Below, in pieces: positions 7,856 through 42,927 of a stretch of DNA of 43,116 nt. The notes under the pieces are model-generated. The model made no database searches. It worked only from the letters and a program-made list of their open reading frames with translations, and had not been told where the DNA came from. Origin of the DNA: a virus (taxonomy: Duplodnaviria > Caudoviricetes); IMG/VR virus record IMGVR_UViG_3300004241_000007, positions 1 through 43,116 of that record. The stretch is one strand, 5' to 3'. Each line of letters opens with the position of its first letter. The stretch's first letter is position 1. A program made the translations under genes and the position numbers.

Positions 7856-8944
7856 ATGTCAAGCGGATACGCAAGTTTACCAAATACGCCTAATTTCTTA
7901 GGTATGTTATTTAATACCAACGTTAATAAGACTCAGTTCTTATCGATGATTGGTGGAGTAGATGGTGCTAATGCACTCATTACTACTAACCCGGAATTTC
8001 CTATTTCAGTAAAGTATGCATTAGACAATCCTAGTCAACCTGCAATTACTGAAGCTGCTTCTGTAGGCGCAGCATCTCCTACCTACTTTGGTTTATCTCA
8101 AGACTCAAACGTCATTCAGATTTTCCAAGAAGACGTTACAGTTTCTAGATTACGTGAACGTGCGTCAGGCCGTCTAAGTGGTATTAATACTGCCGGTATG
8201 ACACCTGAACAATCAGACGAAGAAGCTTTACAAATTATGTTACATCTTGAAAAGATGAAACGCGATATGAACTACACTGCAATCAATGGTGTGTTCGCAA
8301 ATGGCGGTTTAACGAATTCAGCTGTTGCATTAAAGACTCGTGGTATTTTAGCGGCAATCGCTTCTAACATCGTTGTAGGCGCATTAGATGCTGATAATAT
8401 CGATTTAATCGTTCGTAAAGTATTTGATAAGGGAGCATTTGAAACTCCAACTTTCTTCGTTAACTCTGCAAACAAAATCGCTCTTTCAAAATTATTCTTC
8501 ACAGAAAAATTAACTGAAGTTGAACGTAATCGTTTCATGGCTGGCGTTGCAGTTGAAGCATTAGTCACAGACTTCGGTCGTACAATTTATATCGTTGTAG
8601 ATAACGACATTCCTTCAGACACTATCCTATTAGCAGACATTTCATTCGTAAGACCAGTATTTACTCTAGACAGAGAATCTGGACAAGTCATTACTGTTAA
8701 ACCATTATCACAACGTGGTGGAGCATCTCATGAAATTTATGCTGAATTTGGTTTAGACCACGGTGCAGAATTTATGCATGCTAAATTATTAGTTGGTACT
8801 GTAACTGCTTGGGAAACAAGTACTGCATACGTTGCAGGTGTTTATGTCACTCAAGGTGGTTTCACTTACAAGTGCTTAACTTCTCATACATCAGGCACAT
8901 TTGCTACCGATTTAGCTGCTAGTAAATGGGTTCTAATAGTTTAG
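7856..8944 (+). CDS. Major capsid protein (SU10/DUF5309-like) with C-terminal CBM5/12-like module
   Basis: N.IQIFQE.V.VS, TRGIL and TDFG motifs; C-terminal AWETSTAYVAG.YV...G.TYKC...HTS. Confidence 0.88.
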   Translation: MSSGYASLPNTPNFLGMLFNTNVNKTQFLSMIGGVDGANALITTNPEFPISVKYALDNPSQPAITEAASVGAASPTYFGLSQDSNVIQIFQEDVTVSRLRERASGRLSGINTAGMTPEQSDEEALQIMLHLEKMKRDMNYTAINGVFANGGLTNSAVALKTRGILAAIASNIVVGALDADNIDLIVRKVFDKGAFETPTFFVNSANKIALSKLFFTEKLTEVERNRFMAGVAVEALVTDFGRTIYIVVDNDIPSDTILLADISFVRPVFTLDRESGQVITVKPLSQRGGASHEIYAEFGLDHGAEFMHAKLLVGTVTAWETSTAYVAGVYVTQGGFTYKCLTSHTSGTFATDLAASKWVLIV

Positions 8945-15712: not shown

Positions 15713-17146
15713 ATGCCTACATCAACGAGTGGAGCATATAATAGTAATCCAGGGGGTGTGTTACCTTTTCTATTCATAGAAGGGGTTAGTACTGTTACGA
15801 TACATGCCACTGTAACACCATTACCTGGTGAAGTAATTTCAAAGATTAGATTTGTAGTGTGGGACAAGAACGATGTTAAAACATATTCACCAGAAATAAC
15901 TTTTACTGGCGGCTATGCAGAATACAACTTTGGCACAATGTTGGCTGATTGGGTATATACATCACAAAGTGGAAATAAAATTCTATACGCTGGTTGGGGA
16001 GTTATAACAAATATTCAACAAACACCTTGGGCTGGAGCATATGGAAACTTTGGTTCTACAACACACTACTCAAAGCCGCAAGTTAATTTATTTAATGTTT
16101 CAAGAAATACAACAACAGAAACGCAAGCTGATTTTGCGATAGATATAGCATCAAGTCCAGTAATATACGCAAGTACAGAATACAACTTCTTAAAATACAA
16201 ACGACAATATTTTACTACAACTTGGGTAGACATTGATACGTTGATTACTGCACCAGGGCTCGATGTGACTGCCACACTTTCATACGATTTGCCGTTCTTA
16301 ACTGATAAATCTTATACTGCAAGAATAGTTATTGAAGATTTATTTAATACAGTGTATGTTACTGACATATTACCAACGGCATTAGTACCGTTCTCTGTAG
16401 GAAAGACAGGAGTTGGAGCAGGTAAAATACACGAACAAGGTGTGCTAGATATTCAAGGTGAGTCATTCAAAAACGGTGTTTTACAACCAACGATATTTAG
16501 AAAAAAAGAATCTGACCCAGACCCAGATGGAATGGAAGACGGCGATATTCTAATTATCTATAACGAGACAACACCATTTACGTCGACTAACTTTCCACAA
16601 GAATTTGGAACAGGTTATACGTGGTCACAAGTTGGTACTTGGCCGACTGATTATAATTACTGGACTTCTACTTCTGCAACCACAAATACAATTGTTGAGA
16701 GTATGGAAGCTTCAAGTTTCAAAGGTTCTAACTATCCGTATTTAATATTTGATAATGATACTTATTTCAGTAATGGAATTATGATGCCATACGGTACTCT
16801 ACCAGGTGTTCAGATAATCAAGTTTAAAGGTTCTGTTCAGTTTAATAGTTTCCAATTAACTGGTTGGGGACAAGACCACGAACCTAAGAACTCACCTAAG
16901 TCATTTGCTTTCTTTGGAAGTAATGATGCTCATACGTGGGTTTCATTGTACGACACAATTGCATTCGAAGACACTTGGAAAACAACATCAACTGCTACAG
17001 TTATGTCTAACAGTGGTTTATACTTCAAATACTTAAAACTGGTGTGGAGAACAAACCAAGACGATAACAGCGGCAATTTAACAAATGCGACAATGATAGC
17101 TGTAAGAGAATTAAGCTTCGATGCTTCGGGTCACAGATATGTATAG
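15713..17146 (+). CDS. Tail / receptor-binding protein with C-terminal discoidin (F5/8)-like domain
   Basis: EDLF and GVGAGK..E.G.LD.G motifs; C-terminal SPKSF.F.GSND..TW..L and FKYLKL. Confidence 0.7.
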   Translation: MPTSTSGAYNSNPGGVLPFLFIEGVSTVTIHATVTPLPGEVISKIRFVVWDKNDVKTYSPEITFTGGYAEYNFGTMLADWVYTSQSGNKILYAGWGVITNIQQTPWAGAYGNFGSTTHYSKPQVNLFNVSRNTTTETQADFAIDIASSPVIYASTEYNFLKYKRQYFTTTWVDIDTLITAPGLDVTATLSYDLPFLTDKSYTARIVIEDLFNTVYVTDILPTALVPFSVGKTGVGAGKIHEQGVLDIQGESFKNGVLQPTIFRKKESDPDPDGMEDGDILIIYNETTPFTSTNFPQEFGTGYTWSQVGTWPTDYNYWTSTSATTNTIVESMEASSFKGSNYPYLIFDNDTYFSNGIMMPYGTLPGVQIIKFKGSVQFNSFQLTGWGQDHEPKNSPKSFAFFGSNDAHTWVSLYDTIAFEDTWKTTSTATVMSNSGLYFKYLKLVWRTNQDDNSGNLTNATMIAVRELSFDASGHRYV

Positions 17147-18035
17147 TTATTACACGACCACGTATTTGAGTAAAACGATTCATATCATTAAAGGTCAAGA
17201 GGATGCTAACGAAAATATTCAGTTATCCATCCTCGCAGACCGTTATGACAGCGGTGACCCATTAAAATTAGCATCAGAATTTAGTGATAGTTATCTTGAA
17301 GCAAATGGTTGGTCAAAAGTCGGTGTTATCAATGGTGGTTTATTCTTTAGCGGACAGTTCGCTTCAGGTATCGAAAAAGCATTTTGGACAGTCAATGAAA
17401 ATGATGATGCGTGGTTAGATGATGTTATGGGTTTAGCACACAATGGTAATGATAGTAACTTACCAATTGTTGAAACTCAAGGGTTAATCAAATCAAATTG
17501 GGGTGGTTATCGTGGTGGTTTTACAGGCGCGTTTGGTTTATTAAGAAACGGTGTTGTTGACCAGGGTAATACTTCATCACAAGGTTCTTACAGTTCGTTA
17601 TCAGGTAGAGCAATCGTAGGTGATGATTCGTCAGGTGCAATATACTTTATTGCGGTTGCAGGTGTAACCGGTTCTTCAGGATTAACTGGTGCTCAATGCC
17701 TTAGTTTAGCTCAAAGTTTAGGATTAAGAAATGCAGTAGCAATGGATGGTGGTGGTTCAGTATCACTCATTTATCAAGGCTCGTGGAAAGTATCGACTAC
17801 TCGTGAAATAAAGAACGTTGTCGCGATGTATGCAAAAGCTAAAACAATCGTTCCACCTGACCCCGGTGGGGGCGGTACTACAACAGACATAAATAAATTA
17901 GACCAATATACACCATCATATGAAGACGCTATGCCACATCAAATTTATTTCAATGGTGTGTTAACAACTATCGAAGATATTAAAATTATGACGAATGGAA
18001 CATTAGTTTCTATTGCCGATTTAGAAAGTATATAA
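17121..18035 (+). CDS. Phosphodiester glycosidase (NAGPA family)
   Basis: INGGLFF, GRAIVG, G.T..Q...LAQSLG..NAVAMDGGGS motifs; start may be 17139. Confidence 0.8.
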   Translation: MLRVTDMYSYYTTTYLSKTIHIIKGQEDANENIQLSILADRYDSGDPLKLASEFSDSYLEANGWSKVGVINGGLFFSGQFASGIEKAFWTVNENDDAWLDDVMGLAHNGNDSNLPIVETQGLIKSNWGGYRGGFTGAFGLLRNGVVDQGNTSSQGSYSSLSGRAIVGDDSSGAIYFIAVAGVTGSSGLTGAQCLSLAQSLGLRNAVAMDGGGSVSLIYQGSWKVSTTREIKNVVAMYAKAKTIVPPDPGGGGTTTDINKLDQYTPSYEDAMPHQIYFNGVLTTIEDIKIMTNGTLVSIADLESI

Positions 18036-29062: not shown

Positions 29063-29488
29063 ATGGCACGCGATTTAATGGATGAATTGAATGATGTATT
29101 TGAGGAAGTTAAAGACAAGGACTCGACATACGATAGACTAGAAGACGGTGAGTATTTGGGAATATTATCTGATATAATTGTTGGTGAAAGCAAAGCTGGA
29201 AAACCAATGTTAACGATGGTATTTGAAGTTACACACGGTCCTCGTGAAGGTCGTCAACACCGTAAATTCTTTATGTTAAGTGGAAACGATGAAAAACAAC
29301 TCAAGCAAAACCTACAACGTTATGCTACTGAAATCAGAAAAATCGGTATCGATACGTCTAAAGGTTTAAACTCTACGTTTGACCAATTAATGTTAAAAAT
29401 TGATGACGAATTTAAGTTCACAATCAAAACAACATTAAACAAAAATGGAACAGAATGGGTTAACACTTCGTTTGAAGCGGTAGAATAA
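29063..29488 (+). CDS. DUF669-like ssDNA-binding protein
   Basis: L.DGEY and ESKAGKPML...FEV..G...GR motifs. Confidence 0.82.
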   Translation: MARDLMDELNDVFEEVKDKDSTYDRLEDGEYLGILSDIIVGESKAGKPMLTMVFEVTHGPREGRQHRKFFMLSGNDEKQLKQNLQRYATEIRKIGIDTSKGLNSTFDQLMLKIDDEFKFTIKTTLNKNGTEWVNTSFEAVE

Positions 29489-31194
29489 TGTTTATATTTG
29501 ACTTTGAAGTATTTAAGTTTGACTGGTTGGTCGTGTTGAAAAACATGGCCACCGGTCGTTATATTACAATCATTAACGATAAGAATAAGTTGAAAGAGTT
29601 ATACGAAGAAAACAAAAACGACTTGTTCATTGGGTATAACAACATCGCATATGATAACATAATCTTTAAAGGAATACTATCAGACGTTGACCCAGCAGAA
29701 ATTACAAGATTAATCTTTGCATCAGAAAAAGGTACACGACATTTTGTATCTAAAGCGTTAGGCATTAAACAATTTCATTTGAATACAATTGATTTGATGC
29801 AAGATATATTAGGTATGAGTTTAAAAGAAGCAGAAGGTTTTATGAAAATGTCAATTGAAGAGTCAGACGTATCGTTCGATATTGATAGACCACTTACAGA
29901 AGACGAAATAAAACAGGTTGTTAAATACTGTACACATGACGTTGATGCAACAGAACAACTGCTACATATGCGATTACCATATGTAAAGTCAAAAATGAAT
30001 TTGATTAAAATGTTTAAATTGGGTTCGTCATATTTGGAAAAAACAAACGCAGCTTTATGTGCAGTAATTCTAAGTGCAAAAAGACGAAAACACACAGATG
30101 AATTTGAATACGATTTGCCACCTGAAGTTAACATCACTAAGTATACAAAAATCTTTGATTTATATATGAATAGAAAACTTGATTACGACGAAAAATTAAA
30201 AATAGACATTGCAGGTGTGCCACACATTCTCGCATATGGTGGAATACATGGGGCGTTAAATAATTTTATACACAAAGGTGAACTGTGGCAAATTGACGCA
30301 GCATCATACTATCCTACGTTAATGTTAGAGTATAACTATATCAGTAGAAATCTTAAAGACAACGCAAAGTATAAAGAAATTTATGACACAAGAATTAAAG
30401 CAAAACATGAGAAAAATAAAGCTGTTTCTGACTCATTAAAACTTGTTCTAAATACTGCATATGGCGCAATGAAAAGTCAGTACAATGAATTGAGTGACCC
30501 AAAAATGGCAAACCAGGTTTGTATCACAGGTCAATTATTATTGGTTGACTTAATCGAAAAGTTAGAACCGTATTGCAAATTGGTTCAATCTAACACAGAT
30601 GGAATTTTAGTTATTCCTTATAACAAAGAACGAATACAGGAAGTTATTAAAGAATGGGAAAAACGAACACGAATTGTTCTTGAGATAGACCCTTGTTCTG
30701 GTGTATGGCAAAAAGACGTTAATAACTATATTATGCTTTTCGAAGATGGTTCTGTTAAAACCAAAGGTGCATTTGTTTCACAGTATAACGAGTCATCGTT
30801 TAACATTAGAAACAACACACAAATTTTAGATATTGCTGTCGTTGATTATTTTACAAAAGGCATACATCCTATCGACACAATCATGAATTGCAATGACATA
30901 CACATGTTTCAAATCATCACAAACACAGGAAGTGTTTATGACAGAACAGTATGGTCAGTCAACAATGTTGATGTCGAAGTTAATAAAGTTAACCGAGTTT
31001 ACGCAACAACAGATACATCAAAAGGCAAATTGTACAAGATTAAAACAGAAAAAGGAAAACGCGATTCGATTGCAAACCTTCCTGACAATTGTCAATTAGC
31101 CAATGATAATAAGTTCGATATTAATTTATTGGACAAGAATTATTATATACAACGAGCATTGAGTAGAATTGCATACTTTGAAGGCACAGAATAG
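29488..31194 (+). CDS. DNA polymerase, family B-like, with 3'-5' exonuclease
   Basis: Exonuclease DFE, GYN...YD, Y...DV; polymerase DAASYYP, KLVLNTAYG, NTDG, VNNY, KG. Confidence 0.93.
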   Translation: MFIFDFEVFKFDWLVVLKNMATGRYITIINDKNKLKELYEENKNDLFIGYNNIAYDNIIFKGILSDVDPAEITRLIFASEKGTRHFVSKALGIKQFHLNTIDLMQDILGMSLKEAEGFMKMSIEESDVSFDIDRPLTEDEIKQVVKYCTHDVDATEQLLHMRLPYVKSKMNLIKMFKLGSSYLEKTNAALCAVILSAKRRKHTDEFEYDLPPEVNITKYTKIFDLYMNRKLDYDEKLKIDIAGVPHILAYGGIHGALNNFIHKGELWQIDAASYYPTLMLEYNYISRNLKDNAKYKEIYDTRIKAKHEKNKAVSDSLKLVLNTAYGAMKSQYNELSDPKMANQVCITGQLLLVDLIEKLEPYCKLVQSNTDGILVIPYNKERIQEVIKEWEKRTRIVLEIDPCSGVWQKDVNNYIMLFEDGSVKTKGAFVSQYNESSFNIRNNTQILDIAVVDYFTKGIHPIDTIMNCNDIHMFQIITNTGSVYDRTVWSVNNVDVEVNKVNRVYATTDTSKGKLYKIKTEKGKRDSIANLPDNCQLANDNKFDINLLDKNYYIQRALSRIAYFEGTE

Positions 31195-31211: not shown

Positions 31212-31661
31212 ATGAAAGCATATATTGCAAGTCCATTCTTCAATCCTGAACAAGTTGAACGAGTGAAGTTTATCGAGACAACCCTTGGTAAAGTAGGAAT
31301 AGAAATGTTTAGTCCACGATTAGATACATATGTTAAACCGGACTCAAGTCATAGCGAAAGACGAATTGCATTTCACGAAAATCTAAAAGGGATTACTAAC
31401 GCAGACTTTATCGTGGTTGTCACAGACGGTAAAGACGTGGGTACAATCTTCGAAGCAGGTTATGCATGTGCAGCGAATATTCCAATATTATATTTCGCAG
31501 AAACATTAGGTGATAAACCGTTTAATCTAATGTTAGCACACAGCGCAACTCTTGGCACATGTAAAACAAGAACTGAGTTGTATCATGCGTTAACCGATGT
31601 TGCAACATTGGGTGTTGTGAATTGTATCAATCGACCTGAGTATAAAGGTTTAATCGAATAA
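31212..31661 (+). CDS. Nucleoside 2-deoxyribosyltransferase / nucleotide N-glycosidase family
   Basis: YIASPFF, AD.......DGKDVGTIFEAGYA and NLML motifs. Confidence 0.9.
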   Translation: MKAYIASPFFNPEQVERVKFIETTLGKVGIEMFSPRLDTYVKPDSSHSERRIAFHENLKGITNADFIVVVTDGKDVGTIFEAGYACAANIPILYFAETLGDKPFNLMLAHSATLGTCKTRTELYHALTDVATLGVVNCINRPEYKGLIE

Positions 31662-31662
31662 T

Positions 31663-32187
31663 ATGTTTTATAGATTAAGTGGATTAAAACGGTACAACAA
31701 TCAACCCAGAATAAAGTCTGAAAGTTTAGCTGAACACCAATATTATTGTGCATTAATCGTTATGTTCTTAAAACCACATATCGTCATTACTGAAACACAA
31801 TACGCATTATTATTAGAATACGCTTTGATACACGATGTTGGCGAGTTATATACTGGTGATATGCCACACAACATTAAAAAAGATTTTCCAATACTAAAAG
31901 AAACATTAGATATTGCCGAACAAAAGTTTTTAAGACAACATGGTTTTGACACAATCGAAAATGAAATTCAAAATACAATTAAATTAAAGACATTGTTCAA
32001 GTTAGCAGACACAATTCAAGTCATTCAGTATTGCAAAAACGAATTCATATTGGGTAACCACTCTAAAGAAATGGAACAAATCGATGACATTGCTCATGAT
32101 GAGTTTGAAAAATACTTTAGGTTATTAGTTACGCATGGCGTCATGAGTGATGATTTCGATTTAACTTCATTCATGTTAAAATTATGA
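31663..32187 (+). CDS. HD-domain deoxynucleotide phosphohydrolase (YfbR/DatZ-like)
   Basis: KRY, ESLAEH, ALIHD..E..TGD.P and KLAD motifs. Confidence 0.9.
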   Translation: MFYRLSGLKRYNNQPRIKSESLAEHQYYCALIVMFLKPHIVITETQYALLLEYALIHDVGELYTGDMPHNIKKDFPILKETLDIAEQKFLRQHGFDTIENEIQNTIKLKTLFKLADTIQVIQYCKNEFILGNHSKEMEQIDDIAHDEFEKYFRLLVTHGVMSDDFDLTSFMLKL

Positions 32188-32591
32188 TGATATTCGTTGA
32201 AGGCATTGACAAATCTGGCAAAGACACAATCGTTCGATATATTAATGAATATACAAATTTTGCTCATTACGTATCAGCAAGAGGTCCGATGAGTGTGTTA
32301 GCATACGGCCAGAAATTTGGAAGACTTGTTGACGGGTTTAGTTATTTAGAAAATATTAAAGATGAAGTTCTGTTTGTATATTTGGTTGTCGATGAAGACG
32401 ATTTTAATATTCGTTGTAAATTAACAAACGAACCATACACAAATTATGACGAGGACGTTAACGCATTTGATGATGCGCATACTTATATTACAAATCTAGG
32501 TATGCAAACTGTACGACTTAATACATCAAATATGACACCTCAAAGAATTGCAAACGTTATTGTACAATTAATACATGGGAGAAATACATGA
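32184..32591 (+). CDS. Compact dNMP (thymidylate-like) kinase
   Basis: VEGIDKSGKDT P-loop; R...S..AYG; lid R....E. Confidence 0.8.
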   Translation: MMIFVEGIDKSGKDTIVRYINEYTNFAHYVSARGPMSVLAYGQKFGRLVDGFSYLENIKDEVLFVYLVVDEDDFNIRCKLTNEPYTNYDEDVNAFDDAHTYITNLGMQTVRLNTSNMTPQRIANVIVQLIHGRNT

Positions 32592-33505
32592 AAAATACAA
32601 GCATACCTAAAATTAAACCGAAGATGGACATAAGCTTTGACATCAAACCAAAAACTAAATTTGTCAACAACCTTGATGCTATCGAAATTAAGTTATTAAA
32701 TTATACAAGAGTTGATGACCTAAACAACTTCGTTGCTGACTGGTCAAACGCAACATGGAACAAATACCCGTATGAGTCAACAGACAATGGTGATTACGAT
32801 GCTGCAAAGTATATCAACGGTTCAATTAATGGAATTGTGTTACCTACATTATTGGAAACGATTAACCTGACGTTCTTATTAAACGGAATTGACCTGACAA
32901 CTGTCACTCATATTCTACGATATAGAACTGCATCATTTTCAGCAGATTGTTCAGCAGATAAACTATGGCACGAAAGAACGTCATTAGTCCCATCGGCTGT
33001 TCAAAACTCCACTGAGATTTATCAAAAGTATATGAAGGCAACTGAATTATGTAAGGAAGTATATTGCGACATTATCAACTCAAAAGAAATTGGTATCATG
33101 GACGCAAGAAGTATCTTACCACGGAATTTAACAACATTCTATTATATGAATATCTCACTCAAAGACGTAATTCATTTTATTAGACAAAGAATTGATAAGC
33201 AAATTCAACCTGAAGTCGATAACATTATCGCATATAAAATGTATTTGGAAATACTAAGAGTATACCCTTTCCTAAAAGGTATGATTGATGTAAAAGCTCC
33301 AGCAATGCATTTTATTAAACAGGCAAATACAACTGGCTCAACAAATCTATACTGGCCAGACGAAGACTCTGACATATTCGATTGGAACCCTGAGTCATTC
33401 GTATATCAAAGAGAAAGAAAAACTTTGAATGGTACAAACGAAGGTGCAGAAAACCATTTTGAACAACTTAAGTTTGAACTATGGAAAGAGATTGAGAAAG
33501 TATAA
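32588..33505 (+). CDS. Divergent ThyX-fold flavoprotein
   Basis: PTLLE..N.TF, RYR.ASFS, DARSILP and FIRQR....QPE map onto ThyX motifs, but the catalytic signature is altered. Confidence 0.82.
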   Translation: MKNTSIPKIKPKMDISFDIKPKTKFVNNLDAIEIKLLNYTRVDDLNNFVADWSNATWNKYPYESTDNGDYDAAKYINGSINGIVLPTLLETINLTFLLNGIDLTTVTHILRYRTASFSADCSADKLWHERTSLVPSAVQNSTEIYQKYMKATELCKEVYCDIINSKEIGIMDARSILPRNLTTFYYMNISLKDVIHFIRQRIDKQIQPEVDNIIAYKMYLEILRVYPFLKGMIDVKAPAMHFIKQANTTGSTNLYWPDEDSDIFDWNPESFVYQRERKTLNGTNEGAENHFEQLKFELWKEIEKV

Positions 33506-33540: not shown

Positions 33541-33948
33541 ATGAAGATAAAACTAATTAAGTTTAAAGAATTTAAGCCACCATTTAGAGCTCATTACAAC
33601 GACGCGGGTGCAGACATATACTCACCCGCAGAGTATGTACTAAAGCCACATACGACTACAAAAATACCATTGGGTTTCGGCATCGAGTTGCCTGATGGAA
33701 TGATGGGTGTTATATTTCCACGAAGTAGTTATGCAACAAGAGGCATTGTAGCAGAACACCCACCAATTGATAGTGGCTATAGAGGCGAAATACATTGTAT
33801 ACTAACCAACATGACCGATGAATATTTCGGTATATCTAAAGATGACAGAATTGGTCAGCTGGTTATTATGCCCGTTATTGTTGCAGATTTCGTCGAAAGT
33901 CTAACTGAAGAAAGACAAACAAATGGCTTCGGCTCATCTGGAAAATAA
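33541..33948 (+). CDS. dut: Trimeric dUTPase
   Basis: Five motifs: AGAD, PRSS, IDSGYRGEI, DRIGQL and R...GFGSSG. Confidence 0.95.
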   Translation: MKIKLIKFKEFKPPFRAHYNDAGADIYSPAEYVLKPHTTTKIPLGFGIELPDGMMGVIFPRSSYATRGIVAEHPPIDSGYRGEIHCILTNMTDEYFGISKDDRIGQLVIMPVIVADFVESLTEERQTNGFGSSGK

Positions 33949-35794
33949 TAAGTTTATCATTCTAAACAATGATAAAACTCCAAAACATTCCTTAGACGAA
34001 CACAAAACTTTTGACGAAGTTAAAAATTTAGACAGCTTAGCGATATTGGTTGATGAACCATATGTGATGATAGATATTGACGATGCATTCGAATATCTAA
34101 CACTCAAAAAAATCATTAAGGCAGAAAATATTAAGTGTAGAATAATGAAGACAACACGTGGTGGACATTTCTGGTTTAAGAGTATTGAACCAATGAAAAA
34201 CTTAGTTCATGCAAACACACCCATTACGCTAAACGTTGATGTTAGAAGTCACGGTAAAAAGAGTCTTGCAAAAGTAAAGCAAGACGGAGAATGGCGTGAA
34301 TGGGAAGTATGGGTTGATGAAGTAGACGACATTCCCTTTTGGTTAAGACCTGTGAGTCATAAATATCATTTCATGAACTCAAAAGAAGGTGATGGTAGAA
34401 ACTCTGATTTATTTAGTTATATCATCACGCTAACAAATGCAGGAATTACTAAGGAACAAACAAAACATGTCTATCAATTAATTAACACGCATTTGTTTGC
34501 CGATAAATTACCCAGTGAAGAGTTGAATACGATTTTAAGAGATGAAGCATTTGATAAAATAAAACCTGCATTCTTTGACAAACGTAGATTTATGCACGAT
34601 GTGTTCAGTAAATATTTCAGAAACGATAACAAAGTTTATGTTAAAAATGGTAGATTATTCATGTACGATGAAGGTTACTATTCAGACAATACAAAAGTTA
34701 TTGAAAAACGAATGATACAGTACATTCCTGAATTATCTAAAATGCAAAGACGAGAAGTTATGGATTATCTTAAGTTAATAGCAAACGACCCAATCAATAC
34801 AAGTATGTATCACGTTGTTTGTAAAAATGGATTAGTTGATATACGAGATTGCTCAGTCGGTAAATATACTTCAGAAATATTCTTAGCAAATAAAATCAAT
34901 GCAAGTTATATTCCAACAGCATATTCAGTTGATGTTGATAGAACATTAGACAAAATCTCTTGTAATGATAAAGAGTTAAGAATGTTAATCGAAGAAATGA
35001 TTGGCTATTGTTTAATCCAAACAGCTAAATTCCAAAAAGCGTTTATTTTATTTGGTGATGGTTCGAACGGTAAGAGTACTTTGTTAGACGTTGTGATTGC
35101 GTTATTAGGTGATAACAACGTGTCATCGTTAAGTTTAAAAGAGTTAAACCATAACTTTAAGTTAAGTGAAATTACTTCTAAAATGGCTAACATTGGTGAT
35201 GATATATCTGATGAATACTTGACAGACAGTTCTATCTTTAAGAAACTAGTTACTGGTGAAGAGATTACAGTTGATAAAAAGAATGAACAACCTTATAAAA
35301 TTAGAAATTATGCTAAGATGATATTCGCAGCAAATAACATGCCGAATACGATGGACAAATCAAACGGTATGATTAGACGGTTAAGTATCATTCCATTCAA
35401 TGCAGTATTTAGTAAAAATGACCCTGACTATGACCCGTTTATTATTGATAAACTAACAAGTGAAGAAGGTCTAAACTATTTATTAAAAATTGCAGTTGAT
35501 GGCATACGAAGAGTTTTCTCTAACAACAAGTTTACAGAACCAAAAGCAGTTGAGTCTATGGTGAGTGAATACGAAAAAGAAAACAACAATGTATTACAAT
35601 TTATCGATAAAGTCGAAATCGCCAATCGGGACGGTTCGTCTGTATATAATGACTATAAATTCTGGTGTGTTGAAAATGGAGTTATGAGTTATAAAATTAG
35701 AAAATTTAACAGTGAAATTAAAACGCATTTGCATTTAGAATTAGTAATTGAAAAATTCGAAGGAAGGACGGCACAAGTATGGCGCAAAAAATAA
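33923..35794 (+). CDS. Primase-helicase (Prim-Pol, PriCT, P4/D5-type SF3 helicase)
   Basis: DID, TTRGGHFWF, GDGRNS.LF, GDGSNGKST, FKKLVTGE, FAAN and RRL.IIPF motifs. Confidence 0.93.
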   Translation: MASAHLENNKFIILNNDKTPKHSLDEHKTFDEVKNLDSLAILVDEPYVMIDIDDAFEYLTLKKIIKAENIKCRIMKTTRGGHFWFKSIEPMKNLVHANTPITLNVDVRSHGKKSLAKVKQDGEWREWEVWVDEVDDIPFWLRPVSHKYHFMNSKEGDGRNSDLFSYIITLTNAGITKEQTKHVYQLINTHLFADKLPSEELNTILRDEAFDKIKPAFFDKRRFMHDVFSKYFRNDNKVYVKNGRLFMYDEGYYSDNTKVIEKRMIQYIPELSKMQRREVMDYLKLIANDPINTSMYHVVCKNGLVDIRDCSVGKYTSEIFLANKINASYIPTAYSVDVDRTLDKISCNDKELRMLIEEMIGYCLIQTAKFQKAFILFGDGSNGKSTLLDVVIALLGDNNVSSLSLKELNHNFKLSEITSKMANIGDDISDEYLTDSSIFKKLVTGEEITVDKKNEQPYKIRNYAKMIFAANNMPNTMDKSNGMIRRLSIIPFNAVFSKNDPDYDPFIIDKLTSEEGLNYLLKIAVDGIRRVFSNNKFTEPKAVESMVSEYEKENNNVLQFIDKVEIANRDGSSVYNDYKFWCVENGVMSYKIRKFNSEIKTHLHLELVIEKFEGRTAQVWRKK

Positions 35795-40544: not shown

Positions 40545-40580
40545 ATATATATAAGGAAGATGACTTCCTCGGAGGAAATT

Positions 40581-41882
40581 ATGGAAGAAAAAACAATTTG
40601 CTATTTACATTCTCATGGATTGAAGTTAGTTAAAAACGAAAAAACTTATATGTTGATAAATAGCAACGATTATGTACGAACTTTCGATTTATCAAAAAAA
40701 TCTTGGAAGTCAGACGGAGAAGCTAAGTATCTAAAAGAAACTACTAAAATCAAAATTATCGATGAGCTTCGTGCTTGGGCAAGAAACAGAACTGAAGTTG
40801 CTGAGTTTATAACTTGGTATGATGGAAGAACTTTCGAAGAAGAAGGCGAAGAAAAACCTAGTCCAAAAGCTGAAGCTAAAACTGAAGTTGTAGTTCTTGA
40901 TAATTCAGAAGTTGTTAACCAACTTAAGGAATTAACTTCAATGTTAAAAGCTCAATCTCAACGCAATCCATTTGAACAGGCAATGTTGGAAGGAATTATT
41001 GAAAAAGGGAAAGAATTGGCAACTGAAGAATTACGAGTTGAACTTACTTCTCATTTAAAATCATTCGTAGAAAAATCTTACGGTGTACTTCCAAAAGTTA
41101 TTGAAATAAAACAAGGTGACTCACGCAAAGAAATGCAAGGAAACTTCCATAATTTGTTTGATAAAATCATTAAAGTTGTTTCTGCAAAAATTCCACTAAT
41201 GTTGGTCGGTCCTGCTGGTTCAGGAAAAAATCATACTTTGGAACAAGTAGCTGAAGCTCTAAGTTTGGACTTTTATTTCTCAAATGCCATCACTCAAGAA
41301 TACAAATTAACTGGCTTCATTGATGCACATGGAAAATTTCAAGAAACTGAGTTCTTCAAAGCTTTCTCAAAAGGTGGTTTATTCTTCTTTGATGAAATTG
41401 ATGCATCATCACCTGAGTCACTTATAGTTGTTAATGCCGCTTTGGCAAATGGTTACTTTGATTTTCCAAATGGTAGAATTAATGCACATGAAAATTTCAG
41501 AGTTGTGGCTGCTGCAAACACATTCGGTCATGGTGCCGATATGATATACATTGGTCGTAACCAACTTGATGCGGCGACACTTGACAGATTTGCAGTTATG
41601 ACATTTGAATATGATGCTGAAATTGAAAAAGCACTTGCATTTGATACTGATTTATATGACTTCATATTTGACCTAAGACGTGCAATTAATAGAAGAGGCC
41701 TAAGATATGTAATTTCTATGAGAGCAACTATCAATGCCACAAAAATGTTGAATGCCGATATGGACAAATTAACAATTGTCAAATCAGTTATTACAAAAGC
41801 TATGTCAAAAGATGATGTAAATTCCATCATAAATGAATTAAAAATTGACAATGAATGGACTAAACTACTTCGTAAAGTATAA
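40581..41882 (+). CDS. MoxR/CobS-like AAA+ ATPase
   Basis: GPAGSGKN, FFFDEID, F...AANT.G.G and RNQLDAATLDRF motifs. Confidence 0.9.
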   Translation: MEEKTICYLHSHGLKLVKNEKTYMLINSNDYVRTFDLSKKSWKSDGEAKYLKETTKIKIIDELRAWARNRTEVAEFITWYDGRTFEEEGEEKPSPKAEAKTEVVVLDNSEVVNQLKELTSMLKAQSQRNPFEQAMLEGIIEKGKELATEELRVELTSHLKSFVEKSYGVLPKVIEIKQGDSRKEMQGNFHNLFDKIIKVVSAKIPLMLVGPAGSGKNHTLEQVAEALSLDFYFSNAITQEYKLTGFIDAHGKFQETEFFKAFSKGGLFFFDEIDASSPESLIVVNAALANGYFDFPNGRINAHENFRVVAAANTFGHGADMIYIGRNQLDAATLDRFAVMTFEYDAEIEKALAFDTDLYDFIFDLRRAINRRGLRYVISMRATINATKMLNADMDKLTIVKSVITKAMSKDDVNSIINELKIDNEWTKLLRKV

Positions 41883-41888
41883 AAACTG

Positions 41889-41917
41889 AATACACCGTCT
41901 AAAAAGCGGTGTATTTT
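41889..41917 (+). terminator. Probable terminator
   Basis: AATACACCG / CGGTGTATT stem. Confidence 0.7.
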
Positions 41918-42059
41918 CCTAGATGAGTGTGATAGAACGCGATAGTTAAACGAAAAATTAGGCATGTATTTTCCTATTAACTATTTGTAAACAATCAACA
42001 TGACTCATCTATGACAAAAAAATTTTTCAAAACTTATTAAAAAATAGTTAAAATAAACG

Positions 42060-42088
42060 TTTACAAGTAGTTAACACTATGATATAAT
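42060..42088 (+). promoter_or_regulatory. Early promoter P11
   Basis: TTTACA-AGTAGTTAA...TG-n-TATAAT; leader GAATATATACAAAGGAGGAAGATATG identical to P8. Confidence 0.88.
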
Positions 42089-42111
42089 GAATATATACAA
42101 AGGAGGAAGAT

Positions 42112-42927
42112 ATGTTAACAAACAACACGGCAAAATTTAACTTCACTTATTTCGGTTCTGTCAACGAGATGATGGGTTATATGACAACCGAAAAAGATTA
42201 TGACTCTGGCCGAGGTACCTCATCTCATAAGTCCGGCGACGAAGATTATTATGGTGATAATGGTTGGGATGATGCTGTTGAAAAAATCACTTACGGTGAT
42301 GAAAAACTAAGAAAATTCATTGACTCAAAAATGATTTCGATTAGTGAAATTAACACATTGGCAAATAAAATCAAAACCACATATTCACTTGATGTTGTTG
42401 GTGCTGTACCTCATGTCCCAAATGCAATATTGAATATTCCACAAAACATGATTAAAGTAACCAGACGTCAGGTCAAAAACAAAATTCTAAATATCTTCAT
42501 TTCTATCTCAGCCCATTGTGGAATTTCACAAACTGAGATTAAAGAAAATGCCGCAAAATGTGCAGCTGCCGTAAATCTTTTGGAACAGGAAGGTTACCGG
42601 TGTAATGTACTTTCTGGGTCATTCGCCGAACTGGACGGAAAAACCGTGGGTTATGTCACAAAAATCAAAAGTGACAAGGAACCGTTAAACTTGGCAATGA
42701 TGGCATATCCAATGGCAAGTCCTGGGATGTTGAGAAGATTTGGCCTTAGGTTCTTTGAAACTACACCAATTGATTTCACCCATTCTGGTTATGGAACACC
42801 TATGGACAATCATGACGCAATCAAGAAAATTCTTAAGGAAAATTTGAACATTGACAATCCATTTGTTTTCTCAGTTTCCAAGAATAGTGGCAAAGTGGAG
42901 GACATAGCAAATACATTTAAATTCTGA
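42112..42927 (+). CDS. vWA-like partner of the AAA+ ATPase
   Basis: DVVG..P.VP..I..IP.NM; beta strand NIFISIS..; LEQEGY; P.MLRR.G; GYG.P; follows a MoxR-type ATPase. Confidence 0.65.
   Translation: MLTNNTAKFNFTYFGSVNEMMGYMTTEKDYDSGRGTSSHKSGDEDYYGDNGWDDAVEKITYGDEKLRKFIDSKMISISEINTLANKIKTTYSLDVVGAVPHVPNAILNIPQNMIKVTRRQVKNKILNIFISISAHCGISQTEIKENAAKCAAAVNLLEQEGYRCNVLSGSFAELDGKTVGYVTKIKSDKEPLNLAMMAYPMASPGMLRRFGLRFFETTPIDFTHSGYGTPMDNHDAIKKILKENLNIDNPFVFSVSKNSGKVEDIANTFKF

Follow-up and report, generated by a model that had tools for sequence, protein, structure and literature searches.

The replication operon of the phage described here encodes a ThyX-fold protein whose active site has been rewritten throughout a phage family and which, as far as our tests reach, is not an ordinary ThyX. 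The gene very probably belongs to some base-substitution pathway. To our knowledge, every characterised ThyX-fold enzyme performs one-carbon transfer from folate. For the variant we tentatively put forward another role, that of a flavin-dependent, folate-independent 5-(trihydroxypentyl)-dUMP synthase, whose product would partly replace thymine in the phage DNA.

The ThyX variant lies in a phage replication operon

The window, by which we mean the whole stretch of 43,116 bases that was analysed, is a phage record, complete and bounded by terminal repeats. Genes for terminase, portal, capsid and tail precede a replication operon, in which the frames run from polymerase to primase and overlap or nearly abut (Table 1). 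The start of the nucleoside 2-deoxyribosyltransferase (NDT) gene was placed at 31212, the start to which the ribosome-binding site belongs, rather than at 31194, as given by the ORF finder. At the position of the catalytic Asp this NDT has an Asn, and it retains the Asp and Asn that bind the 5'-OH.

No second thymidylate synthase was found elsewhere in the complete window genome, which also contained no PF00303 match that could represent a ThyA-fold dCMP hydroxymethylase; our own profiles were likewise negative. A PurZ homolog was absent from the window proteins scanned against Pfam and PHROG, and no SDR reductase or sugar-transfer gene was present among the 33 window proteins scanned, which represent the larger ORFs. 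Other regions of the genome encode a major capsid protein with a carbohydrate-binding module, CBM_5_12, at its C-terminus (7856-8944), a tail-region protein with a phosphodiester glycosidase domain (17121-18035) and, at the genome end, a pair formed by an AAA_5 ATPase and a DUF7192 protein (40560-42927).

Table 1 Genes of the replication operon in the window.
Feature	Position	Strand	Basis
Family-B-like DNA polymerase	29488..31194	+	PHROG 1252, E 8e-150; PolII matches weak
NDT family protein (nucleoside 2-deoxyribosyltransferase)	31212..31661	+	PF05014, E 2e-15; alignments to solved NDT/PDT
YfbR/DatZ-like HD 5'-deoxynucleotidase	31663..32187	+	PF12917, E 3e-14; matches DatZ 6zpa and YfbR 2paq
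P-loop nucleotide kinase, dNMP-kinase-like	32184..32591	+	Thymidylate_kin, E 4e-4 (below cut-off); PHROG 761
ThyX-fold protein with rewritten active site; predicted C5-alkylating dUMP synthase	32588..33505	+	
Trimeric dUTPase	33541..33948	+	PF00692, E 4e-25; TIGR00576, 97 bits, slightly under cut-off
Primase-helicase, last gene of the replication operon	33923..35794	+	PHROG 864, E 1e-154

Fold and classification

The variant comprises 305 residues; its gene has its own ribosome-binding site and overlaps the kinase gene upstream through an ATGA. Pfam Thy1 matched residues 36-227 (E 7e-16, 59 bits against a cut-off of 24.8), the AF2 model reached a pLDDT of 90.2, and every top Foldseek match of this model was a ThyX. 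The VIA alignment to T. maritima 1o26 gave a Z of 14.6 and an rmsd of 2.9 over 202 residues, within the ThyX range of Z 14-16, while the next unrelated fold scored only Z 2.8. An earlier sequence-only reading of this DNA had described an intact ThyX scaffold, and all of these results agree with it. That reading had also claimed a C-terminal extension of roughly 70 residues; the extension is present, is about 75 residues long and is conserved in the family, as is a 30-residue N-terminal extension that had gone unmentioned.

On the TIGR02170 thyX equivalog model, the variant scored 41 bits, under the cut-off of 87.9, whereas the ordinary ThyX proteins of two related loci, used as controls, passed with 180 and 102 bits. 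ESM Atlas and BFVD offered only automatic thymidylate-synthase names for the variant.

A phage-borne protein family

Among 995 candidates we identified 484 family proteins of similar length, and clustering at 50% identity, with E values up to 1e-30, gave 69 clusters. About 60 columns are invariant among 58 aligned sequences, and the gene order is fixed. A search of 185,579 species genomes returned only three matches for cellular genomes, all of them on MAG contigs, and the two contigs that were examined have phage gene content. Geobacillus phage GR1 is the sole cultured phage with a full-length homolog, which is 42% identical to the window enzyme and is accompanied by NDT, HD, glycosyltransferase and kinase genes and by a ThyA-like remnant. 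None of 4561 longer candidates joined the variant to NDT or HD in one protein, which is weak evidence; the long matches comprised ordinary Thy1 proteins, a GT2 fusion, an HNH insertion and one probable chimera. The open-access literature that we searched contained no description of the variant family, of GR1 or of a deoxyribose route.

Family-wide replacement of active-site residues

The numbering of T. maritima ThyX was verified against the sequences of the S88C, H53A and R90A mutants in the PDB, and the positions were read from a multiple alignment, free of gaps, in which 70 distinct family members stand beside 31 ordinary phage ThyX sequences from the same loci. The counterpart of His53, which we take to be the folate-stacking residue of ThyX, is Leu85. 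It is a Leu in 69 of the 70 family sequences and a His in all 31 ordinary ones, so that the loss of His53 first noticed as a change of GHETPFE to VLPTLLE proved to be a property of the family. Most of the further substitutions proposed in that reading are fixed as well: R74 is replaced by T107, Q75 by H108, E86 by A119, S88 by C121 and R90 by Gly or Ala at position 123, each in 70/70. The exception is H79Y. This position is the middle of the FAD-binding RHR motif, whose arginines (R111 and R113) are present in 70/70; it is Tyr here, but His in 54/70. Two additional family-wide changes had been overlooked, Y91 to D124 and H178 to Q205, both found in 69/70.

Retained in every one of the 70 sequences are E58, R78, R80, R147, R174 and Q180, and partly retained are T55 (53/70) and E182 (63/70), which bears out the claim that R147, R174 and the QxE motif are kept. 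The equivalents of R147 and R174, the dUMP arginines, are R174 and R201 in the window protein. For the loop 119-125, a one-residue shift is likewise compatible with pairwise HMMER alignments to wild-type ThyX; neither Arg90 nor Tyr91 is present, whichever register applies. Among 50%-representatives of at least 220 aa, Cys121 occurs in 40/55 of the nearer and 26/51 of the distant members. Since it is less conserved in the distant members than Leu85, Gly123, Asp124, Arg174 and Arg201, Cys121 may not be the essential change.

With ThyX (T. maritima TM0449, M. tuberculosis ThyX; PF02511, TIGR02170) and the UMP/dUMP methylase PolB, the variant shares a fold at Z 14-16, and with ThyX it has in common the RxR FAD motif, T55/E58, R147, R174 and Q180. 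It differs from ThyX by H53L, R74T, Q75H, E86A, S88C, R90G/A, Y91D and H178Q, by its N- and C-terminal extensions, by an equivalog score under the cut-off and by its ties to NDT and nucleotidase genes. A true ThyX is often co-resident with it.

According to passages of PMC8316439, S88, R90 and Y91 assist the ThyX reaction, and exchange of any one of them (S88A, R90A or Y91A) slows it strongly; R174 activates dUMP, and ThyX accepts formaldehyde directly via a flavin-N5 carbinolamine. A passage of PMC6514825 describes the ThyX tyrosine as a lid over C5/N5. As the Tyr lid, its neighbour and the folate His are gone from the variant, while the FAD motif is kept along with the arginines that activate dUMP and contact its phosphate, a bulkier aldehyde could fit, and NDT and the nucleotidase, the two constant partners described below, are the very enzymes that would release 2-deoxyribose. 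At the level of sequence, the retention of the dUMP-activating R174 and the phosphate-binding R147 favours a change of carbon donor over a change of nucleotide. The sequence-only reading had suggested an altered substrate or folate-independent flavin chemistry, and such a function would fit all of the comparative tests, namely the fixed changes, the failure on TIGR02170 and the link to NDT and HD genes.

Conserved gene partners of the variant

Neighbourhoods were compared in a ThyX-anchored set consisting of the best 80 of 102 IMG/VR matches, which form 23 clusters at 80% identity. NDT is present in 73 of these 80 loci. The variant was in turn found in 74 of 80 NDT-anchored loci (the best 80 of 318 NDT matches), a count that is biased because the query was built from linked NDTs and contigs are shared with the ThyX-anchored set; the comparison of NDT linkage with that of ordinary ThyX is provided by the cultured-phage counts given below. 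Counted per cluster, NDT occurs in 20/23 and an HD or HAD 5'-nucleotidase in 23/23, in keeping with the link to NDT and HD genes raised earlier. The other partners are an all-alpha pyrophosphatase (21/23), a kinase (17/23), a short cytosine-type ThyA-like gene (7/23), a dCMP deaminase (6/23) and an ordinary ThyX (3/23). The module recurs in many unrelated phages, beside PolA, PolB or PolC-type polymerases.

An ordinary ThyX is encoded in 38/80 loci, mostly in one redundant group of large phages. In 35 whole records it occurs in 9, and a full ThyA in 2 more, so that 11/35 encode an ordinary dTMP synthase; in 24/35 records and in the window genome, no full thymidylate-synthase-like gene besides the variant was found. 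Glycosylases that by eye resemble MBD4 and Fpg/Nei surround the variant and the ordinary ThyX in large phages (L023-L081), together with an NAD-dependent epimerase and a MazG-HAD fusion.

The position of the catalytic Asp is occupied by Asn in 160/160 NDT domains, and the 5'-OH-binding Asp is kept in 159. In DmtZ, a hydrolase that shares this Asn but has phosphate as its ligand instead, the N77D mutation lowers kcat/Km about 100-fold according to published passages, which suggests that Asn at this position favours hydrolysis. HD proteins carry Tyr at the YfbR Tyr20 position in 70/72 cases.

In relatives, genes for the tailoring of hydroxyls adjoin the variant or are fused with it (GT2 fusion, TAGT, LicD, TylF). 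Right after the NDT-HD-ThyX module, two loci (L161:7753-12053 and L155:7840-10536) encode a choline kinase, a cytidylyltransferase, a transporter and LicD together with glycosyltransferases, a set that may decorate phage DNA with phosphocholine. Short ThyA-like proteins of 150-220 aa are encoded directly after the variant at L004:8996-9592, L011:9013-9552, L082:6986-7579, L001:12963-13418 and L010:9064-9978, the last being fused to a kinase. These proteins keep the catalytic Cys and have a cytosine-type Asp at the position of the uracil-reading Asn; their closest solved match is T4 dCMP hydroxymethylase, followed by other cytosine enzymes. They may represent a second, cytosine modification or be a sign of a cytosine substrate.

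Comparison with known DNA-modification systems

The module resembles the Z-genome set (DatZ, DmtZ/NDT and DutZ/MazZ round PurZ) in its HD hydrolase, Asn-type NDT and pyrophosphatase beside a DNA polymerase, and in its logic of making the new and removing the old. However, it has no PurZ and places a ThyX fold at the synthase position, and in its NDT the nucleoside-type 5'-OH residues, missing from DmtZ, are present. The ThyA-fold C5 modifiers (T4 dCMP hydroxymethylase, dUMP hydroxymethylase and the flavin-dependent 5-hydroxy-dCMP synthase of RB69/DLP3) likewise modify C5 before replication and are accompanied by a kinase, a pyrophosphatase and a glycosyltransferase, have a catalytic Cys and set a precedent for leaving folate, but their fold is unrelated to that of the variant and they require neither NDT nor 5'-nucleotidase.

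Phages SP-15, YerA41 and Carin-5 share with the variant module a divergent ThyX fold, the Asn-type NDT subfamily, a YfbR-like HD protein, which is present in all three, and sugar-tailoring genes, which in the case of the variant occur in relatives. SP-15 also resembles some variant-carrying phages in having a second, ordinary thymidylate synthase: passages of PMC5977210 describe an ordinary ThyX together with a divergent Thy1 protein, gp130. The gene for gp130 adjoins NDT and SDR genes, and the SP-15 NDT belongs to the same subfamily as the window NDT (HHalign 98.8). Nine distinct cultured phages were found to encode a tandem ThyX of the gp130 type, and all nine carry the same NDT subfamily. 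Queried with the window NDT, 50,697 records yielded 13 cultured-phage matches, 8 of which are tandem-ThyX phages (SP-15, the ninth, was found separately), and 10 of the 13 are divergent-ThyX phages. LIS04 has its NDT beside a ThyX-like gene of 371 aa; no ThyX-like gene lay within 4 kb of the NDT matches in Planchet and PM411. As to annotation, YerA41 gp86 (L165:14980-15516), labelled a mannosyltransferase, is in fact an NDT-family protein, and gp81 (L165:11520-12683), labelled hypothetical, is in fact tandem ThyX-like, while SP-15 gp114 (L164:37784-38521) is QueC-like as annotated and distant from the thymine-modification genes.

Passages of PMC12686479 and PMC13697223 report that a long-linker base partly replaces thymine in SP-15 (dihydroxypentyl), Carin-5 and YerA41, the measured cores being T+104 for YerA41 and T+88 for Carin-5 (PMC12686479). 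In the same passages, the published value of 346 is labelled m/z yet handled as a neutral mass, and the summary sentence swaps the linker values (PMC12686479). By our arithmetic, dU plus deoxyribose minus water plus H2 equals T+104.05, and one hydroxyl fewer equals T+88.05, which is the base of SP-15; with ribose the result would be T+120. In the +88 phages SP-15 and Carin-5, an SDR gene adjoins the ThyX-like gene or lies 3 kb from it, whereas in YerA41 it is more than 50 kb away, these being three cases only; the SDR reductase would remove the 3-OH to give the T+88 base. The chain of the SP-15 base is reportedly labelled from ribose and made at the nucleotide level (Walker and Mandel, in 1978). 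A term search of PMC12686479 and PMC13697223 returned neither deoxyribosyltransferase nor ThyX from the text covered, and the passages on the linkers of SP-15, YerA41 and Carin-5 propose no deoxyribose route.

No homology of the variant to SP-15 gp130 was found by HHalign (probability 0.4), the halves of the SP-15-type proteins match the variant family no better than they match ordinary ThyX (31 vs 29), and the SP-15-type loop keeps Ser/Arg where the variant family has Cys/Gly/Asp. Because the proteins are not close relatives and their loops differ, the link to SP-15 lies in the shared partners only. The candidate synthases SP-15 gp130, YerA41 gp81 and Carin-5 gp49 are moreover tandem proteins of about 390-410 aa, in contrast to the single-domain window variant, and the window phage differs from the SP-15 type in having no SDR or tailoring gene among its scanned proteins and in its B-family-like polymerase. 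In one uncultured phage fragment (L136:5216-7634), the NDT-HD pair is accompanied by DUF6378 and by a probable tandem-type ThyX (23% and 17% identity) in place of the variant, which suggests that the two kinds of ThyX are interchangeable in the module.

A proposed route to 5-(trihydroxypentyl)uracil

In the pathway that we propose, the HD enzyme would dephosphorylate a deoxynucleotide, and the Asn-type NDT would hydrolyse the resulting nucleoside to free 2-deoxyribose. The dUTPase would supply dUMP, to be held and activated by R201 and R174. The sugar aldehyde would then replace the folate-borne formaldehyde in the space vacated by His53, Arg90 and the Tyr91 lid, and would become attached to C5 by way of a flavin-N5 carbinolamine or else after addition of Cys121 at C6, with Asp124 as the acid. 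Transfer of a hydride from reduced FAD to the exocyclic alkylidene would follow, and the phage kinase and host kinases would convert the product to the triphosphate, which the family-B-like polymerase would insert opposite A. The predicted base is 5-(3,4,5-trihydroxypentyl)uracil, replacing part of the thymine of virion DNA. Relatives would decorate its hydroxyls by means of glycosyl-, methyl- and phosphocholine-transferases; the window phage, with no tailoring gene beside the module, would carry the bare base. The purpose is likely protection from host nucleases.

Open-chain deoxyribose is a minor species, which counts against an aldehyde route. Also against the deoxyribose route are three complete genomes with the variant (L017, L022 and L032), in which no NDT was found at any place. 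There, a virus-restricted flavin amine-oxidase-like gene with a HAD phosphatase and a methyltransferase stands in place of NDT (L017:6561-7436, L022:6228-7121, L032:6548-7447); it either breaks the deoxyribose model or supplies another aldehyde. A phage NDT from nuclease-resistant contigs, which may be of another family than the window NDT, is described in passages of the preprint 10.1101/2025.10.22.683976 as a dA-preferring transglycosylase. As a broader and somewhat more speculative proposition, phages may have converted ThyX folds, on at least two occasions, into general aldehyde:dUMP C5-alkyltransferases. NDT and nucleotidase would then draw 2-deoxyribose from host nucleotides for 5-(trihydroxypentyl)uracil, and the amine-oxidase-like gene would lead to another aldehyde and base.

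Alternative explanations

The loss of S88, R90 and Y91, helpers of the normal reaction, would also suit a one-carbon or oxygen chemistry, in which the variant makes 5-hydroxymethyl-dUMP (from formaldehyde or folate, left unreduced) or 5-hydroxy-dUMP (with flavin and oxygen), while HD and NDT merely destroy dTMP, as DatZ and DmtZ act on dA in Z phages. A single hydroxyl suffices for glycosyltransferases, modules that destroy the canonical nucleotide are documented in published passages, a ThyA-fold enzyme has switched from folate to flavin hydroxylation (passages of PMC13326640), and SP-15 gp130 was itself proposed as a hydroxymethyl-dUMP synthase (passages of PMC5977210). We nevertheless regard this explanation as unlikely, since it accounts neither for the near-confinement of the NDT subfamily to divergent-ThyX phages among the cultured matches, nor for the co-retained ordinary dTMP synthases, nor for the +104 and +88 cores of phages with the same partners. 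Quite improbable is a divergent but ordinary dTMP synthase, with HD, NDT, kinase and dUTPase as a salvage kit raising dTTP. The FAD and dUMP arginines are retained, the window genome and most whole records have no other full synthase-like gene, and T. maritima ThyX S88C exists as a folded protein and retains activity. Yet H53, R74, E86, S88, R90 and Y91 are all lost together, where S88A, R90A or Y91A alone is strongly slowing (passages of PMC8316439), co-resident ThyX proteins pass the equivalog cut-off that the variant fails, and a 5'-nucleotidase opposes dTTP supply. The same loss of six catalytic or binding residues could mark a decaying or non-enzymatic remnant, a reading that we rejected as having a negligible chance of being correct, given the 484 family proteins of similar length, the roughly 60 invariant columns, the intact frame and the fixed gene order.

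Two explanations involve other bases. Asp124 could read a 4-amino group and make dCMP the substrate, so that an alkyl, methyl or hydroxy cytosine replaces C and the cytosine-type ThyA-like neighbour acts on the same base. The catalytic Cys, the cytosine-type Asp and the T4 dCMP hydroxymethylase match of these neighbours speak for it, as do the all-alpha pyrophosphatase of 21/23 clusters, which could be a dCTPase, and the enrichment of Thy1 in cytosine-protected contigs of a published screen (49 vs 275). We consider a dCMP substrate distinctly unlikely, because the ThyA-like neighbour is missing from the window and from 16/23 clusters, the dCMP deaminase and dUTPase neighbours indicate dUMP, and the characterised analogues modify T; in the same screen, Nuc_deoxyrib_tr (PF05014; 1 vs 50) and HD_3 (0 vs 60) are not enriched, whereas Nuc_deoxyri_tr2 and NT5C are. 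Very improbable, finally, is an adenine substitution without PurZ, in which NDT swaps a free base, made or modified by the variant, onto the deoxyribose of dA, like the accessory chemistry of Z genomes. The partners do resemble DatZ, DmtZ and DutZ, nearly all HD proteins carry the Tyr20 equivalent (70/72), and the sugar-phosphate contacts R74, E86 and R90 are lost; in addition, passages of a restriction-resistance screen (10.1101/2025.10.22.683976) report an enrichment of NDT and YfbR (Tyr20), with PolA but without PurZ, in nuclease-resistant contigs, which is the layout of L033. A bulky T could equally block those nucleases, however, R147 (phosphate) and R174 (pyrimidine activation) are kept, and no nucleoside kinase is shown in the window genome. 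A link to PurZ was rejected, an adenylosuccinate-synthetase homolog being present in just 1/35 related records.

Implications

If the 5-(trihydroxypentyl)-dUMP synthase reading is true, it would add a DNA base and a new flavin C-C chemistry, in which a five-carbon, sugar-derived chain is placed on uracil. The pentyl linkers of SP-15, YerA41 and Carin-5, so far without an explanation, would thereby gain a candidate route of synthesis, and in its broader form the reading would explain the dihydroxypentyl chain of SP-15, open since 1978. The occurrence of NDT and YfbR without PurZ in nuclease-resistant viromes may have its reason here as well. The combination of variant ThyX, NDT and nucleotidase would then be a signature by which modified genomes could be spotted among 'thymidylate synthase' annotations. 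Under the broader reading, the new base would be widespread in gut, soil and marine phages. The cultured phage GR1, whose host is harmless, carries the full module.
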